From a virus (Duplodnaviria > Heunggongvirae > Uroviricota > Caudoviricetes): a stretch of 5,727 nucleotides of DNA. Position numbers and translations under genes: made by a program. Below the pieces are notes generated by a model that saw only the letters and a program-made list of their open reading frames with translations, was not told the DNA's origin and did no database searches. Position 1 is the first letter of the stretch. Every line of letters starts with the position of its first letter. The DNA is taken from the IMG/VR virus record IMGVR_UViG_2706794678_000004; one strand, 5' to 3'. Shown piece by piece: positions 1 to 5,727 of this stretch.

Positions 1-167
1 ACGGCAGCAAGCCAGTAATGGGTTAAGTGATAACAGGTGTCTGGAAATATAGGGGCAAATCCAGCGTTCATCAGCCCCCGCATTGCCGACAGGATCACAG
101 ACGGGGGGCGCAACTGGTTGTCGTTCAACTGGCCCAGCTACCGTTCTTGTATCAGAGGTGTGGCTGC

Positions 168-1559
168 ATGACAACACCAGTCTGGCGTAATGATGACCTG
201 GAAGGCGCTGTCATTGGCGCATTCTTTCTGCGTGGGGCAGATCATGAAGTGATGGATATTCTGATCACACTACCGGCGGACATTTTTTCTGTACGAGCGT
301 ATCGGGATATCTACACAGGCATCTGCAGACAGGCCCGTGTTTCAGGAGTGATTGACCCCGTGCTGTTGTGTAATGAGATGCCGGAACTTGCCCCGGTGAT
401 TACTGATACCGGGCGTAAAACCTGGGTGAAGTCTTCACTGGAGCACTATGTTGCAGCGTTGCGGCGCAATGCCGCACTGCGCGATGCAGAAAAAACACTG
501 AATGAGGCGCTGCAGAAATTACGTGATGCGCATACCTGTGAAGCAGCTGAAGATGCCCTGAAGGATGCGCAGAACATGATGGTCACACTGTCGACAGGAA
601 AGGGCGTCATTCAGCCGGTACATATTGATGATGTGCTTCCGGAAGTGGTTGAGCGTGTTGAATGCCGGAATCAGGGGCTGGAGAAATCCAGGACGTTGAT
701 GACCGGTATTGATGAACTGGACGCAAAAACAGGCGGTATGGAGCCCGGAGACCTGGTATTCATTGCCGCCCGTCCTTCGATGGGGAAAACCGAACTTGCG
801 CTGGACATCATCGACAAGGTGACTGAGCAGGGGCATGGTGTGCTTCTGTTCACCATGGAGATGGCGAACATCCAGATTGGTGAACGTATGGTGTCTGCGG
901 CTGGAGGGATGCCAGTATCACGCCTGAAATCTGTGGCTCACTTTGAAGATGAAGACTGGGCGCGTTTCTCACAAGGGGTGGGGCGGATGACCGGGCGCAA
1001 TATCTGGATGGTGGACCAGGCGAACCTGACCATTGATGAGATATGCGCAACAACGAAACACCATCTGATTAAACATCCGGAAACGGCGCTGGTGGTGGTT
1101 GATTATCTCGGGCTGATAAAAACCCGAACCACGGGGCGTCATGACCTTGCCGTGGGTGAAATCTCAAAGGGGCTTAAAGGCCTGGCAAAATCCGGTGGTT
1201 TTCCGTTGATTGCGCTGAGCCAGCTCTCCCGCGGTGTGGAGTCCAGACCCAATAAACGTCCCATGAACTCAGACCTGAAAAATTCCGGAGAAATAGAGGC
1301 GGATGCAGACATCATTCTGATGCTTTACAGGGATGAAGTGTACAACCCGGATACACAGGCTACAGGCATAGCAGAAATTAATATCACGAAACAACGTAAC
1401 GGTTCTCTGGGGACGATTTACCGGCGTTTTTATAACGGACATTTTCTGCCTGTGGACCAGGAAAGCGCACAGGTTCTTTCCACCCCAATGCGGCAGCCCC
1501 AGCCGCGCAGATACAGCAATACACGTACCGACAGCAGTAAGATGGAGCGTTTCTTTTGA
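168..1559 (+). CDS. Replicative DNA helicase, DnaB family (phage replication module)
   Basis: The reading frame is open from 27, but the ATG at 168 is preceded by AGAGGTG (154-160) at about 9 nt and gives 463 aa, a typical DnaB length. The 47 residues upstream are Cys/Arg/Gln-rich and unlike DnaB. Motifs read directly: 'DLVFIAARPSMGKTELALD' (Walker A-like), 'FEDEDWARFS', 'LIALSQLSRGVESRPNKRPMNSDLKNSGEIEADADIILMLYRDEVY' (DnaB C-terminal RecA-like domain). Stop TGA at 1557-1559. Confidence 0.85.
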   Translation: MTTPVWRNDDLEGAVIGAFFLRGADHEVMDILITLPADIFSVRAYRDIYTGICRQARVSGVIDPVLLCNEMPELAPVITDTGRKTWVKSSLEHYVAALRRNAALRDAEKTLNEALQKLRDAHTCEAAEDALKDAQNMMVTLSTGKGVIQPVHIDDVLPEVVERVECRNQGLEKSRTLMTGIDELDAKTGGMEPGDLVFIAARPSMGKTELALDIIDKVTEQGHGVLLFTMEMANIQIGERMVSAAGGMPVSRLKSVAHFEDEDWARFSQGVGRMTGRNIWMVDQANLTIDEICATTKHHLIKHPETALVVVDYLGLIKTRTTGRHDLAVGEISKGLKGLAKSGGFPLIALSQLSRGVESRPNKRPMNSDLKNSGEIEADADIILMLYRDEVYNPDTQATGIAEINITKQRNGSLGTIYRRFYNGHFLPVDQESAQVLSTPMRQPQPRRYSNTRTDSSKMERFF

Positions 1560-1813
1560 ACAACCAGACAATGACTTTTACCTCTGAACAATTGCGTAAA
1601 CACGCGCAGGAAATGTTGCGACAGGCGGAACAACTGGAAAAAACAGGTGTAACAAAAGATGCCATTCGTCGGGATATGGTGCCAGCGCTCAGGGAACTGA
1701 TGCAGGCGAAACATCGCGCACAAAAAGCGGTGGATGAGCTCGTTGATTGTGTGGCAGAGCTGGAAACCAAAGTTGGAAAGTTTGAAAAAATGGTGCAGGA
1801 GGTGCTGCGCTGA
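1556..1813 (+). CDS. Small hypothetical phage protein (predicted coiled-coil, 80-85 aa)
   Basis: ORF in the six-frame track. A TTG at 1556 overlaps the helicase stop (tTTGA) with GGAG at 1544-1547 about 8 nt upstream; the first ATG is at 1571 with no obvious SD. Charged, heptad-like composition (EQLRKHAQEMLRQAEQLEK...ELETKVGKFEKMVQEVL). Its stop TGA (1811-1813) overlaps the rusA ATG (TGATG). No family recognised. Confidence 0.5.
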   Translation: MNNQTMTFTSEQLRKHAQEMLRQAEQLEKTGVTKDAIRRDMVPALRELMQAKHRAQKAVDELVDCVAELETKVGKFEKMVQEVLR

Positions 1814-2184
1814 TGCGCCATGAGTTTATTTTACCTTATCCGCCGACGGTGAATACTTACTGGCGACGTCGTGGCAGCACATATTTTGTATCAAAAGTTG
1901 GTGAGCGTTATCGCCGTGATGTGACGCTAATTGTTCGCCAGCAGCGGCTGAAATTAAACCTGTCCGGAAGGCTGGCGATAAAGATTATTGCAGAGCCACC
2001 GGATAAGCGCCGTCGTGACCTGGACAATATCCTGAAAGCACCACTGGATGCGCTGACGCATGCCGGACTACTCATAGACGACGAGCAGTTTGATGAAATC
2101 AATATTGTGCGCGGTCAGCTCGTTCCTGGTGGGCGACTGGGCGTGAAGATTTATGAAATCACAGGTGATAACGATGGCGCGTGA
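1813..2184 (+). CDS. rusA: Crossover junction endodeoxyribonuclease RusA (Holliday junction resolvase)
   Basis: 123 aa; '[15 protein letters not shown]' and '[30 protein letters not shown]' closely resemble the E. coli RusA family as recalled (…DRRRRDLDN…DALT…DD). ATG at 1813 is coupled to the upstream stop. Confidence 0.9.
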
Positions 2185-2560
2185 TATTCAGCAGGTTATG
2201 GAACGGTGGGGGGCTTGGGCTGCAAACACTCATGAAGATGTATCCTGGGCGTCGATCGCTGCTGGTTTTAAAGGGTTAATTCCGTCGAAAGTGAAATCAC
2301 GCCCTCAGTGTTCTGATGATGATGCAATGATAATTTGTGGCTGTATGGCCCGGTTGAACAAGAAAAATCAGGATTTGCACGATTTGCTGGTGGATTATTA
2401 CGTAGGTGGAATGACTTTTATGAGTCTGGCACGGAAACATGGGTGTTCGGATACCTGTATTGGCAAGCGCCTGCAGAAAGCGGAAGGGGTTATTGATGGC
2501 ATGTTGATGATGCTTGATATCCGGCTGGAGATGGACAGATACGTAGAACGAATTATGTAG
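2174..2560 (+). CDS. Q: Late-gene antitermination protein Q (small QuuD/YbcQ-type)
   Basis: The ATG at 2174 is preceded by AGGTGA (2163-2168) and overlaps the rusA 3' end by 11 nt. 128 aa '[61 protein letters not shown]...[26 protein letters not shown]' matches the DLP12 QuuD-type Q antiterminator as recalled. Position immediately upstream of a promoter/terminator pair and the lysis module fits. The track ORF start at 2153 lies inside rusA and is less likely. Confidence 0.85.
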
Positions 2561-2564
2561 GTGC

Positions 2565-2594
2565 TTGACCAGACACATTGTCCGGGGCTATATT
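2565..2594 (+). promoter_or_regulatory. Candidate late promoter (PR'-like): TTGACC-18 nt-TATATT
   Basis: -35 TTGACC at 2565-2570, 18-nt spacer, -10 TATATT at 2589-2594, starting 5 nt after the Q stop codon. Predicted transcript start near 2601-2603; the leader begins with hairpin CGCCAG-caaaat-CTGGCG (2602-2619). Confidence 0.45.
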
Positions 2595-2655
2595 CCTCAC
2601 GCGCCAGCAAAATCTGGCGTCGGGATTGGAACCCCGGATAGAGACCGCGACAGAC

Positions 2656-2680
2656 ACACGCCGCGAGCGTGTTTTTTATT
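2656..2680 (+). terminator. Intrinsic terminator (tR'-like) ending a ~75 nt leader RNA
   Basis: Stem ACACGC (2656-2661), loop cgcga, stem GCGTGT (2667-2672), followed by a run of six T then ATT (2672-2680). Confidence 0.5.
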
Positions 2681-2805
2681 GTCGTATGCACGCGCACATC
2701 TGAATTATGGTGGGGCGCATGGGGGAGCTGAAAAGCTCGCCGGTCGGTTTCCCGGTAGTTCCAACCCTGTGCGTCTCACCACCCGATGATTGGAACCTGA
2801 CGGTG

Positions 2806-2834
2806 TTGACAGTTTCAGGTTTGCAGTTTACATT
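2806..2834 (+). promoter_or_regulatory. Second candidate sigma70 promoter (consensus -35 TTGACA)
   Basis: TTGACA at 2806-2811, 17-nt spacer, TACATT at 2829-2834 (4/6 match to TATAAT). Function unclear; it may be the true late promoter or a promoter for the downstream ORF6N gene. Confidence 0.3.
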
Positions 2835-2869
2835 TCCCCGCGGTGCTCAAAACACCTCGAAAGCGGTAT

Positions 2870-2897
2870 CCACACCCGATAGCCATGTGGTTTTTTT
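2870..2897 (+). terminator. Candidate intrinsic terminator
   Basis: CCACA (2870-2874) ... TGTGG (2886-2890) stem with an 11-nt loop, followed by seven T (2891-2897). The loop is longer than ideal. Confidence 0.35.
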
Positions 2898-3040
2898 GTG
2901 TCCAGAATTCTTGGTTTATGACCGGGTGTGCGGCTAATACAATACCAGCAATGGAAATACGCCCGCCGACTTTCGACGGTTTTGAGCGCCCGGTCACCCT
3001 CTCAAAAGGGGTAAATCAAAATATTCGAAAGGACATGTCT

Positions 3041-3604
3041 ATGAATCGCACGTCTATTGAAAAACTCCCGTCACTTACGCATAACCATCTTCCTGTCATG
3101 ACAACAGAGCTGCTGGCTGATTTGTACGGAACAGAGCGCCAGCGTTTGACAAACAATTTCAATCGAAACAAAGAACGGTTTATAGAAGGTAAACATTTTT
3201 TCCTGATAGAAGGTGATGCGTTACGAGAGTTGAAGAACGAAAACTCTTTAAGAGTTTCTGTGAAAATTGCCCGTAACGTTCGCTCCCTCATCCTCTGGAC
3301 AGAACGTGGCGCAGCCCGTCACGCCAAAATGCTCGAAACCGATCAGGCGTGGGAAGTGTTCGAAAAACTGGAAGACTGTTATTTCAACCAGAAACAGCCA
3401 CCAGCGGCACAAAACACATCTATCGAAAATGATGGATGCGCATTACTGAGCCACTTCGATAAACACGGTCAGGTTGAGTTCACGGAAAAGGTACCCGCCG
3501 ATGCGATGGTATGTACTCTGGAACGGTTTAAATTTTATCTGGAGCAACACGGGTGGATCGTTGCCCGTAAAGAGCAACTGGTGGAGCGGTTGATGCGGTT
3601 TTAA
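3041..3604 (+). CDS. ORF6N-domain protein (phage antirepressor / Rha-like DNA-binding family), 187 aa
   Basis: The ATG at 3041 is preceded by AAGGA (3027-3031) at 9 nt; the 66 codons upstream in the same frame (from 2843) are Cys/Trp-rich and overlap the promoter/terminator region. 'LPVMTTELLADLYGTERQRLTNNFNRNKERFIEGKHFFLIEGDALRELK...LWTERGAARHAKMLETDQAWEVFEKLEDCYF' matches the ORF6N domain pattern as recalled (V-LDsdLAeLYG-etk-LN--v-RN--RF-e-F-L---E...fTE-Ga--ls--l-sd-A). Stop TAA at 3602-3604. Confidence 0.65.
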   Translation: MNRTSIEKLPSLTHNHLPVMTTELLADLYGTERQRLTNNFNRNKERFIEGKHFFLIEGDALRELKNENSLRVSVKIARNVRSLILWTERGAARHAKMLETDQAWEVFEKLEDCYFNQKQPPAAQNTSIENDGCALLSHFDKHGQVEFTEKVPADAMVCTLERFKFYLEQHGWIVARKEQLVERLMRF

Positions 3605-3680
3605 AAATTTTTTCCGAAAACTTTACGATCGTAAAAAGTTGAATATCCTGTTAAGAGTGGTTACTACGCCACACAGCTTA

Positions 3681-3705
3681 AACCCGCCGATGAGCGGGTT
3701 TTTTT
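3681..3705 (+). terminator. Intrinsic terminator downstream of the ORF6N gene
   Basis: AAACCCGC (3681-3687 core CCCGC), loop cgatga, GCGGG (3694-3698), followed by seven T (3699-3705). Confidence 0.65.
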
Positions 3706-3755
3706 ATACCTGAAAAACGGCACAGGACGTTAAACGTGCTGGTGGTCAGATGAGT

Positions 3756-3784
3756 TTGCAGATGTGATGACATATGGTTATTAT
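3756..3784 (+). promoter_or_regulatory. Candidate promoter for the tRNA array
   Basis: TTGCAG (3756-3761), 17-nt spacer, TATTAT (3779-3784); the -10 ends 9 nt before the first tRNA 5' end (3794). Confidence 0.3.
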
Positions 3785-3793
3785 TCTGCCTCC

Positions 3794-3870
3794 GGCCCTT
3801 TAGCTCAGTTGGTCAGAGCGAGCGACTCATAATCGCCAGGTCGCTGGTTCAAGTCCAGCAAGGGCCACCA
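3794..3870 (+). tRNA. ileZ: tRNA-Ile2 (anticodon CAT, lysidine type; ileX/ileZ-like), CCA encoded
   Basis: Cloverleaf read by hand: acceptor GGCCCTT/AAGGGCC, D-stem GCTC/GAGC, anticodon loop CTCATAA (CAT at 3828-3830), T-arm GCTGG-TTCAAGT-CCAGC, discriminator A, CCA 3868-3870. Closely resembles E. coli ileX as recalled; tRNA-Met cannot be excluded from the anticodon alone. Confidence 0.85.
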
Positions 3871-3871
3871 A

Positions 3872-3948
3872 CCACCACTAGCTCATCCGGATAGAGCATC
3901 AACCTTCTAAGTTGACGGTGCGAGGTTCGAGTCCTCGGTGGTGGGCCA
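3872..3948 (+). tRNA. argN: tRNA-Arg (anticodon TCT), CCA encoded
   Basis: Acceptor CCACCAC/GTGGTGG (unusual C1-G72), D-stem GCTC/GAGC, anticodon stem TCAAC/GTTGA with loop CTTCTAA (TCT at 3906-3908), T-arm CGAGG-TTCGAGT-CCTCG, discriminator G, CCA 3946-3948. Confidence 0.8.
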
Positions 3949-3950
3949 GC

Positions 3951-4026
<76 letters not shown>

Positions 4027-4029
4027 TAT

Positions 4030-4104
<75 letters not shown>

Positions 4105-4548
4105 GCGAGATTTGAGACGAAGGTTGTTATTTGCACTGACACAATATTGTGTGGGAATGTCTGACTCCTTACCATCTCCTGTTCTGTGATGTTGTTTTGT
4201 TGCAGTTCCAGTGCTCTTTTTTCAGCACCAGAATGGTGCATTGTCGGTCAGGTTACGTAGTGAACCTCTGGCAGGGGACTGATGATTCATCATTCTGGTG
4301 TTGTAAATATCTCTTCGGACAACTTACAAAATATTCTAAGCAAACCCCGGGAACACACTCTTAACTGCCTTGGCTGGCGGTTTTTTGTACAGCGCTCGGT
4401 ATGTGTGAGCTGGAAATCAGATTTTGCATGGACTGGAATCATGCTGTTATTTAGGGGCGAAGAACTGGCTTTTTCTTCCGCCTTCTCACCAGTAACGATT
4501 AGAAAAATAATGAAATGCCCCCCTCCGGGGAGGAGGACCGTAGAAAAA

Positions 4549-4811
4549 NNNNNNNNNNNNNNNNNNNNNNNNNNNNNNNNNNNNNNNNNNNNNNNNNNNN
4601 NNNNNNNNNNNNNNNNNNNNNNNNNNNNNNNNNNNNNNNNNNNNNNNNNNNNNNNNNNNNNNNNNNNNNNNNNNNNNNNNNNNNNNNNNNNNNNNNNNNN
4701 NNNNNNNNNNNNNNNNNNNNNNNNNNNNNNNNNNNNNNNNNNNNNNNNNNNNNNNNNNNNNNNNNNNNNNNNNNNNNNNNNNNNNNNNNNNNNNNNNNNN
4801 NNNNNNNNNNN
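4549..4811. other. Run of 263 N (assembly/scaffold gap or masked sequence)
   Basis: Uninterrupted n characters. All track ORFs crossing it (4282-4845 +, 4290-4823 -, 4515-4853 +, and the X-containing part of 4486-4992 -) are artefacts inside the N run. Confidence 0.99.
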
Positions 4812-5205: not shown

Positions 5206-5229
5206 ACGAATAAAGTAACGGGGCGGGAT

Positions 5230-5445
5230 ATGTATCAGATGGAAAAAATATCAACAGGCATTGCCTACGGCACCTCCGCCGGCAGTGCCGGCTACTGGTT
5301 TTTGCAGTGGTTGGATCAGGTCAGTCCATCACAGTGGGCTGCGATTGGTGTGCTGGGAAGTCTGCTTCTGGGGCTTCTGACTTATCTGACAAATCTGTAT
5401 TTCAAAATAAGAGAAGACAAGCGTAAGGCTGCGAGAGGTGAATAA
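5230..5445 (+). CDS. S: Class II holin, S21-type pinholin with dual start (Met1/Met4)
   Basis: 71 aa '[71 protein letters not shown]' is near-identical to the phage 21 S21 pinholin as recalled. Two TMDs, with a Gly/Ala/Ser-rich TMD1. Stop TAA at 5443-5445 overlaps the next ATG (TAATG). Confidence 0.9.
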
Positions 5446-5727
5446 TGTCGCCATCATTACGCAAGGCTGTTGCAGCTGCTATTGGTGGTGGGGCTGTTGC
5501 TATAGCATCTGTGTTAATCACTGGCCCAGGTGGTAACGATGGTCTGGAAGGTGTCAGCTACATACCATACAAAGATATCATTGGTGTATGGACTGTATGT
5601 CACGGACACACCGGAAAAGACATCATGCTCGGTAAAACGTATACCGAAGCAGAATGCAAAGCCCTCCTGAATAAAGACCTTGCCACTGTCGCCAGACAAA
5701 TTAACCCGTACATCAAAGTCGATATAC
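5445..5727 (+). CDS. R: SAR endolysin (R21-like lysozyme), 3' truncated by window end
   Basis: Hand translation from the ATG at 5445: '[94 protein letters not shown]'. The N-terminal Gly/Ala-rich weakly hydrophobic segment is a signal-anchor-release (SAR) domain, followed by a lysozyme domain start resembling phage 21 R as recalled. It is absent from the ORF track because no stop lies within the window. Confidence 0.85.

Follow-up and report, generated by a model that had tools for sequence, protein, structure and literature searches.

The stretch of 5,727 nucleotides (nt) analyzed here, called the window below, comes from IMG/VR virus record IMGVR_UViG_2706794678_000004 and is part of a lambdoid prophage. 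Between its antiterminator gene, Q, and a tRNA array lies a plus-strand gene (ATG 3041, TAA 3602-3604) for a protein of 187 residues that carries an ORF6N domain. In the 480 bases from Q to this gene, two antisense-RNA modules like that of phage P1 immI stand in tandem, with all the RNAs on the plus strand (Table 1). The first module has an IsrK-type short RNA and a C4-type RNA; the second has its own promoter, a decoy leader, an RNA of the small RNA (sRNA)-Xcc1 class, and a pair of target sites, a2 and b2, at the Shine-Dalgarno (SD) sequence of the ORF6N gene. The ORF6N gene itself is ordinary: it belongs to the AnrP family of induction regulators and sits in a cassette of a known kind, one that enterobacterial prophages commonly carry. 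What is variant here is the second RNA lock, which is of the Xcc1 class.

The gene had been picked out in an earlier note made from the sequence alone, from which the IsrK, C4 and sRNA-Xcc1-class RNAs upstream of it were absent. Its open reading frame (ORF) is real. A chance ORF is excluded because there are 4661 database homologues of the protein at E<=0.001 and because the ratio of nonsynonymous to synonymous change (dN/dS) against an E. coli homologue is 0.13, the same value being found for the whole ORF and for its C-terminal part alone. The segment 3041-3604 is a real gene under selection. The note had also credited the gene with an SD and a terminator of its own; both are present, with AAGGA at 3029-3033, 7 nt upstream of the ATG, and a stem-loop beyond the stop codon, but the SD is the predicted target of an antisense RNA. 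The "late terminator" that the note placed upstream of the gene is likewise a real hairpin with a T-run, but it belongs to IsrK, and the tRNA array lies downstream as described.

Table 1. Features of the window, in order of position.
Feature	Position	Strand	Basis or detail
DnaB-like helicase ORF	27-1559		GTG start at 27
RusA gene	1813-2184		
Q antiterminator gene, lambda type	2153-2560	+	Pfam Phage_antitermQ, 2.7e-52
Candidate late (PR'-type) promoter, the IsrK promoter	2565-2594	+	TTGACC, 18-nt spacer, TATATT; promoter scan
c4-a1b1	2588-2640	+	Rfam, 50.1 bits, above gathering score
IsrK-type short RNA	2601-2677	+	Rfam isrK, 77.5 bits vs gathering score 50; a1/b1 decoy hairpins for C4
Intrinsic terminator of IsrK	hairpin 2656-2672, then T/U-run	+	Terminator scan
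C4-type antisense RNA	2703-2786	+	Rfam C4 RF01695, 71 bits vs gathering score 45
Upstream ORF	2707-2937	+	76 codons; starts at conserved AUG inside C4
Module 2 promoter	2806-2834	+	TTGACA, 17-nt spacer, TACATT; promoter scan, 10/12 matches
Decoy leader	2842-2897	+	a1 hairpin, b1, terminator-like hairpin and T7
sRNA-Xcc1-class RNA	2920-3003	+	Rfam RF02221, 77.4 bits vs gathering score 53
Target sites a2 and b2	3016-3033	+	a2 TCAAAA, 3016-3021; b2 TCGAAAG, 3025-3031
AnrP-like ORF6N gene	3041-3604	+	Pfam, PHROG, homology to AnrP, dN/dS
Intrinsic terminator 3' of the ORF6N gene	3680-3709	+	Stem-loop 3680-3701, 8-bp stem (5 G-C), then T-run
tRNA array, Met(CAT), Arg, Thr, Gly	3794-4104	+	ARAGORN; context only, outside the cassette
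N-masked stretch with IS110-like transposase fragment	N run 4549-4811		Fragment not checked against a profile
S21-type holin gene	5230-5445		

Covariation of an antisense loop with its predicted Shine-Dalgarno target

The decoy leader of module 2 has an a1 hairpin (GGTG/CACC stem; CTCAAAAC at 2846-2853), then b1 (TCGAAAG, 2857-2863), and then a terminator-like hairpin in which CCACA at 2870-2874 faces TGTGG at 2886-2890, with the seven T residues at 2891-2897; by eye, the stem of this hairpin covaries across loci. The Xcc1-class RNA downstream of the leader has an outer stem around two hairpins and, after the outer stem, a CACCC-like tail as in C4; its fold has a z score of -1.6. We read it as a C4-like antisense RNA. 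In this scheme b' is the hairpin-2 loop, CTTTCGA (2970-2976), and a' is the 3' junction, TTTTGAG (2980-2986). The leader's a1 and b1 are exact complements of a' and b', the pairings of a' with a2 and of b' with b2 are exact as well, and b2 overlaps the SD. With the Xcc1 core, the predicted duplex energy is -32 kcal/mol for the decoy leader versus -14 kcal/mol for the target. A TTGAC(A/G/T) -35 element plus a -10-like hexamer, the hexamer being recognized by eye, stands at the equivalent place upstream of the leader in 9 of 19 other Xcc1-type loci; for the loci beyond those 9, the 130-nt segment shown did not reach the promoter region.

The pairing of loop and SD segment is maintained while the sequences change. 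Among 19 loci with an Xcc1-class RNA there are 14 distinct hairpin-2 loop sequences, and in nearly every locus an exact complement of at least 6 nt lies close to the SD, the match being weaker in locus L019; most of the loci have a second copy of the loop complement in the upstream leader. In E. coli EC12, for example, the loop CTACTGA pairs with TCAGTAG, in Serratia CTCGTTTA pairs with TAAACGAG, and in a Chromatiaceae genome TCCTTTGAG pairs with CTCAAAGGA. Column-wise counting of covariation on a MAFFT alignment (A2) was dropped because the loop and target segments shift register between locus groups, and duplex energies under permuted RNA-leader pairings were used in its place. Cognate duplexes averaged -18.1 kcal/mol over 14 non-redundant loci, versus -11.0 +/- 0.87 kcal/mol for permuted pairs; none of 20000 random RNA-leader pairings reached the observed energy, and the cognate RNA was the best binder of its own leader in 11 of the 14 loci. 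A fixed-offset permutation test of the upstream decoy gave a weaker result (7/20000), because the distance to the decoy differs between locus groups.

The hairpin-2 loop and the SD segment are thus complementary and covary. By analogy with the experiments on P1 C4 and on IsrK, the RNA would repress translation and the decoy would relieve the repression. We think it probable that the sRNA-Xcc1 family, hitherto regarded as a trans-acting sRNA linked to virulence, is a second widespread class of C4-like cis antisense RNAs, each with an upstream a1/b1 decoy and with a2/b2 sites over the neighbor's SD, the neighbor usually being an ORF6N-type induction regulator. In the window such a module would be stacked behind IsrK and C4, making a double RNA lock wired into Q antitermination.

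The IsrK/C4 module and the distribution of the cassette

In module 1 the IsrK hairpin loop UUGGAAC complements the C4 junction GUUCCAA, and the IsrK segment GAGACCG complements the C4 loop CGGUUUC. The predicted fold of C4 has an energy of -44.9 kcal/mol (z = -5.0), and the duplex of the C4 core with IsrK is predicted at -34 kcal/mol. An a2-like site, TTGGAAC, follows C4 at 2790-2796, but no b2/SD partner follows it in module 1, unlike the short-form loci. Gifsy-1 is such a short form: its C4 loop CGGTGAT faces ATCACCG-GAGGG just upstream of the anrP ATG. The IsrK/C4 module has lost its own SD target at this locus and is now a late-promoter leader, and a recombination junction lies near 2805, where the sequence switches into the -35 element of the second promoter.

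The assignment of the IsrK promoter as the late promoter rests on an alignment of promoter regions from eight loci (A6). None of the eight departs from the others in the -35 element or in CCGGGGCTATATT; a 12-nt segment of the spacer (2571-2582) is common within each Q family and differs between families. Because the segment varies with the Q family, the alignment supports the late-promoter assignment. In lambda, the Q-binding element sits at this spacer position. In the same loci the loop of IsrK hairpin 1, GCAAAAUC (2607-2620), is invariant together with its stem in 8/8, whatever the Q family. This loop has no complementary partner in C4, and instead of being an antisense target it might be a sigma-70 pause/qut element or a site where a chaperone binds.

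The upstream ORF that starts inside C4 has its AUGs at transcript nt 107 and 119, matching Gifsy-1 orf45. In the 13 loci compared, the ORF has anything from 15 to 76 codons, and an AUGA stop/start overlap with the downstream gene occurs in Gifsy-1 only, so that orf45-type coupling was rejected as a family feature. The ORF is probably not a conserved coding unit, judging from these lengths and overlaps.

The earlier note took the ORF6N gene for a stand-alone moron at a site usually occupied only by tRNAs and toxin genes, that is, for autonomous cargo with its own SD and terminator in the late leader, expressed by Q readthrough. The distribution of the cassette speaks largely against this. A contiguous stretch of isrK, C4 and the 5' part of the ORF6N gene was found in 1249 of 5426 complete E. 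coli genomes, so that at this position the cassette is essentially a conserved component, which the note itself had named as a finding that would refute its reading. The gene recurs at the exact position after a lambda-type Q in E. coli prophages (L001, L005), after a DUF1133-type Q in E. coli (L003) and Salmonella (L006), after an "Antiterm"-type Q in L026, and after the 82-type Q of Gifsy-1; the cassette thus follows three or four different Q families. Further, the SD is embedded in a covarying antisense target, and the Gifsy-1 homologue feeds back on Q expression. A promoter-like site, an SD and a terminator are indeed present, as the moron reading would have it, and in distant species the upstream neighbor of the ORF6N gene is Q-type in only about 5 of 62 cases, which argues that the cassette is mobile. 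On balance we regard autonomous cargo as very improbable.

The figure of about 5/62 also led us to reject, for the wider family, the idea that Q is always the upstream neighbor. In a sample of 40 loci from different species, C4 (with isrK) or sRNA-Xcc1 lies upstream of the ORF6N gene in 31, and in 28 of those 31 the RNA ends at most about 140 nt before the ORF start; in this sample the usual companion of the gene is an RNA, not Q. The tandem of C4 and Xcc1 is rare in E. coli, with full coverage in 5 genomes, and the Xcc1 module as such is present in 163. One of these modules is in the O104:H4 strain 2011C-3493 (L092, 3501-4379), where an unannotated Xcc1-type module of 87.7% identity precedes an ORF6N gene of 224 codons; its neighbors are a Rha gene, a kil-like gene, gam, recT and exo, a prophage recombination-gene region. 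The ompW-proximal prophage end was compared in two E. coli strains (L086, 2388-3217; L093, 2580-3804), and its contents differ at the same chromosomal site: one strain has ash and a Rha protein that bears the window-type C-terminal domain, and RM8082 has IsrK-C4-Xcc1-ORF6N with no Q upstream. Because one site can hold either set, the cassette is exchanged as a unit, with Q adjacency unnecessary.

Two C4- or Xcc1-type RNAs are also stacked around ORF6N genes elsewhere, in L012 (2745-2945 and 3749-3950), L011 (2637-2720 and 3208-3292) and L046 (1498-1579 and 2840-2926), and one paper lists five sRNA-Xcc1 copies in Xylella at a spacing of roughly 385 nt. Arrays of C4/Xcc1 cassettes seem common. 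A separate observation concerns Actinobacillus phage vB_Apl-pPE4 (L004, PP818812.1). Its gene order and gene sizes are those of the E. coli VL40 prophage (hok, genes of 600, 291 and 555 bp, ORF6N) and its ORF6N protein is close to the VL40 protein in alignment; the host stated for it looks doubtful.

The ORF6N protein

The ORF6N domain proposed for the protein is borne out by Pfam: PF10543 matches residues 13-97 at profile positions 5-86 of 86, with 74.4 bits against a gathering cutoff of 27.8 (E 8.8e-21). Membership among antirepressor-like regulators, also proposed, agrees with an end-to-end match to PHROG 2379 (labeled "anti-repressor", a 187-position profile; residues 2-187 on profile positions 3-187, E 4.4e-85) and with 49.5% identity to AnrP (STM2616/SL2578) of Salmonella Typhimurium Gifsy-1 over residues 3-184, 97% of the protein. 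The Rha, KilA-N and Bro-N domains named in the note as relatives to be sought in Pfam were not detected there, nor was ANT/KilAC (PF03374), and NCBIfam has no family that matches the protein. A PDB sequence search with a 40-sequence profile gave no match at E<=1, and a Foldseek search against the PDB gave none below 1e-3.

The AlphaFold model (pLDDT 77) has an N-terminal domain at residues 12-115, a disordered linker at 118-130, and a small C-terminal domain, a beta-hairpin with two helices, at 131-187. In an alignment of 12 sequences the core LILWTERGAARHAKMLETDQAWEVFEKLEDCYF is invariant at 30 of 33 positions; residues 30-80 and the C-terminal domain are mosaic, with at least three variants of the latter. 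The note had found the C-terminal 70 residues unplaceable, and the C-terminal domain does indeed lack a Pfam family and a PDB match by sequence or fold. The 70 residues match PHROG 2379 by themselves (3.6e-18), and they are 90% identical to the C-terminus of an E. coli Phage_pRha-domain protein from the ompW end of another prophage. When they served as the query of a word-indexed homologue search, the search returned 17 close fragments and Rha fusions only. The conserved core, for its part, also occurs in E. coli proteins whose other domain is KilAC/ANT or P22AR-C. Because the C-terminal domain is portable and fast-swapping, it would fit a partner-specificity module, e.g., a repressor-binding surface.

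The protein could act either as an antirepressor or as a DNA-binding activator. In the latter case it would be a sequence-specific activator of the early or Q operon rather than a repressor-binding antirepressor, and the RNA gating would be unchanged. The N-terminal domain model resembles the winged-helix DNA-binding domains of Dachshund, pSK1 Par, the MerR family, RacA and Xis. ORF6N reportedly was predicted to be a DNA-binding domain by Iyer et al. in 2002. Against this, relatives that share the core carry the antirepressor C-terminal domains KilAC/ANT and P22AR-C, and the exchangeable C-terminal domain of the window protein itself resembles a partner-specificity module; the PHROG curators' label of anti-repressor points the same way, as an annotation. 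We consider direct activation unlikely.

An arrangement like a type I toxin-antitoxin or abortive-infection module, in which the antisense RNA is the antitoxin and the protein arrests growth, was also considered. The C4 RNA of P1 also controls icd, which encodes a cell-division inhibitor, sRNA-Xcc1 lies upstream of the toxin gene symE in Xanthomonas integrons, PADLOC gives weak matches to candidate defence models (PDC-S05, 1.4e-07), and IsrK overexpression is toxic in Salmonella. The PADLOC matches, however, are confined to the ORF6N domain, and the toxicity in Salmonella is caused by AntQ, not AnrP, since cells that expressed only anrP grew normally (PMC4825925). We consider a growth-arresting protein very improbable.

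The proposed induction circuit and known systems

In Gifsy-1, readthrough from the isrK promoter yields the transcript isrK-orf45-anrP (Hershko-Shalev et al. 2016, PMC4825925). Short IsrK supplied in trans raises anrP translation about 140-fold, and AnrP expression raises antQ-operon mRNA and induces the prophage (PMC4825925). IsrK is the short product of an antitermination-regulated promoter (Sy et al. 2020). The suggestion in the earlier note that the gene's activity is tied to lytic induction fits this characterized homologue. For the window, we judge it reasonably likely that a P1 immI-like RNA lock has as its payload an AnrP-family prophage-induction regulator, in which an ORF6N winged-helix domain is joined to a C-terminal specificity domain that can be exchanged.

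Under this proposal the ORF6N gene would be transcribed from the module 2 promoter and also from the late promoter, whether through leakage past the IsrK terminator or by RNA polymerase that Q has made terminator-resistant. Late transcription must cross the ORF6N gene because the lysis genes lie downstream. The Xcc1-class RNA is probably excised from the same transcript, by RNase P if the analogy with known systems holds, and its a' and b' segments would pair with a2 and b2 and cover the SD; translation would then be repressed as P1 C4 represses icd-ant. The short terminated leader, with its copies of a1 and b1, would act as a decoy because it pairs more strongly with the antisense RNA than the target does, and its accumulation would free the SD, as IsrK does in Gifsy-1. 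The protein so made would de-repress the early operon, an activity known from Gifsy-1 AnrP only, and Q would rise; more Q would mean more transcription of the gene, a positive feedback that would commit the prophage to induction.

Several points weigh against this proposal. AnrP synthesis in Gifsy-1 requires orf45-anrP translational coupling (PMC4825925); the upstream ORF of the window lacks stop/start coupling, since 104 nt separate its end at 2937 from the ORF6N ATG. Gifsy-1 has isrJ 3' of the gene at 100 bits, whereas the window gave no match to isrJ (RF01393) at E<=1. The protein is no more than about 50% identical to AnrP, and its C-terminal domain belongs to another variant. The hairpin of the decoy leader is thermodynamically weak, and the leader fold has a z score of +0.7. 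The literature treats sRNA-Xcc1 as a trans-acting sRNA; cis action of the Xcc1-type RNA, like the activity of the window protein, is argued from analogy, and the modeled winged-helix fold is also compatible with an activator that binds DNA directly. Finally, gene tables for the assemblies with this locus list nothing with a repressor-type Pfam hit among the called genes from integrase to DnaB, although cI and cro were not searched for, so that a cognate partner in cis may be lacking.

This last point also bears on whether the locus is a decaying relic, without current function, of a defective prophage. Three NCBI assemblies (L089-L091) match the window at 100% identity over 1-4548 and 5220-5727, and a protein cluster 99% identical to the ORF6N protein carries the name Shigella sonnei, which is the probable host (GCA_003606425.1 and related assemblies). 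In the gene tables of these assemblies the prophage is riddled with insertion sequences (IS) and IS4 interrupts the portal gene; module 1, moreover, has lost its b2/SD target. On the other side, the ORF is intact with the low dN/dS given above, the complementarity of a1/b1, a'/b' and a2/b2 in module 2 is perfect, the Q, holin, lysozyme and terminase genes are intact (Pfam and gene tables), and antirepressors can act on other resident prophages, according to the Gifsy literature. We therefore find decay very improbable and retain the RNA-locked induction regulator as our reading.

Other features of the prophage were noted in passing. The 3' untranslated stretch at 3605-3709, which ends at a strong terminator, sits where Gifsy-1 has isrJ; it is not an isrJ homologue, gives a sub-threshold Trp_leader hit only, and could give rise to another 3'-derived sRNA. 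The first tRNA of the array (3794-3870) is called tRNA-Met (CAT) by ARAGORN, whereas RefSeq has tRNA-Ile in homologous loci, which suggests an ileX-type lysidine tRNA; E. coli VL40 has the same array, also downstream of its ORF6N gene. The segment 4549-5219 consists of the N run and about 400 bases whose minus strand encodes, by eye, the N-terminus of an IS110-family-like transposase. It stands in place of 227 bases found in otherwise identical assemblies, which makes it probable that an IS has inserted here, between the tRNAs and the holin gene. At the left end, the first ~50 residues of the DnaB-like ORF are not helicase-like by eye (27-400); DnaB is called as 463 residues in identical assemblies, versus 510 for the window ORF, and its immediate upstream neighbor there is an IS3-family transposase gene.

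Through its covarying SD target, an RNA family known in the searchable literature as a trans-acting sRNA gains a putative function in cis. The covariation also supplies a definite cis target that can be put to the test, namely the neighboring gene's ribosome-binding site. Three separately named Rfam families (isrK/c4-a1b1, C4 and sRNA-Xcc1) would be joined in one regulatory design. If the proposal holds, the locus would be an example of a lambdoid prophage that couples an induction regulator to its late promoter, so that leaky late transcription can act back on the early operon. Such coupling would bear on how Shigella prophages, and Shiga-toxin phages in E. coli, are induced spontaneously; the O104:H4 chromosome carries the same Xcc1 module. 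There is also a gain for annotation, as thousands of entries named "ORF6N domain-containing protein" could be read together with their RNA leaders.

Among known systems, Gifsy-1 antQ-isrK-orf45-anrP-isrJ has the order of the window, namely Q, IsrK with its terminator, a C4-type RNA (STnc1160) and an ORF6N protein of 187 residues, with the upstream-ORF AUGs at the same transcript positions and with tRNA and lysis genes downstream. The window differs in its Q, which is of the lambda rather than the 82 type, and in the entire second module that is inserted between C4 and the gene, from its promoter and decoy leader through the Xcc1-class RNA to a2/b2.

Another is the immI system of phages P1 and P7 (c4 antisense RNA, icd, ant1/ant2). 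In the P1 record its order is promoter, a1, b1, c4, a2 (3 nt after c4), b2 (11 nt before the icd ATG), icd and ant. As in the window, the RNA that carries a' and b' is co-transcribed with its target and b2 lies at the ribosome-binding site of the controlled gene. The payload is unrelated, however, the window lacks an icd-like gene, and its gene-proximal RNA is of the Xcc1 class instead of C4. P1 Ant was rejected as a homologue of the window protein: the BLASTP E value is 6.3, and Ant1 carries only ANT/KilAC (1.2e-30), which the window protein does not have.

The sRNA-Xcc1 (RF02221) of Xanthomonas campestris, like the RNA in the window, has an outer stem with two hairpins and a CACCC-like tail. 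It is described as an integron-encoded trans-acting sRNA, whereas in the window and in 19 related loci the RNA precedes an ORF6N gene in cis, with covarying targets at the SD of that gene and a decoy on its own upstream side. The literature mentions, without a mechanism, that it precedes an ORF6N gene in APSE phages and symE in Xanthomonas, and we found no paper in the searchable literature that states a cis mechanism for it.

The authors of the Gifsy-1 study liken IsrK and processed STnc1160 to the seqA and CI RNAs of satellite phage P4, with IsrK as a structural homologue of seqA (PMC4825925). In P4 immunity (CI RNA, seqA, seqB, seqC), as in the window, a processed RNA pairs with repeated sites up- and downstream of it; P4 CI causes premature transcription termination of the replication genes (PMC4825925, discussion), whereas the target in the window overlaps an SD.

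As for the protein, phage regulators of the Rha, KilA-N and Bro-N kinds are said to shuffle their domains, a view attributed to Iyer, Koonin and Aravind in 2002. Like the window protein, these regulators combine an N-terminal DNA-binding-like domain with interchangeable C-terminal domains.

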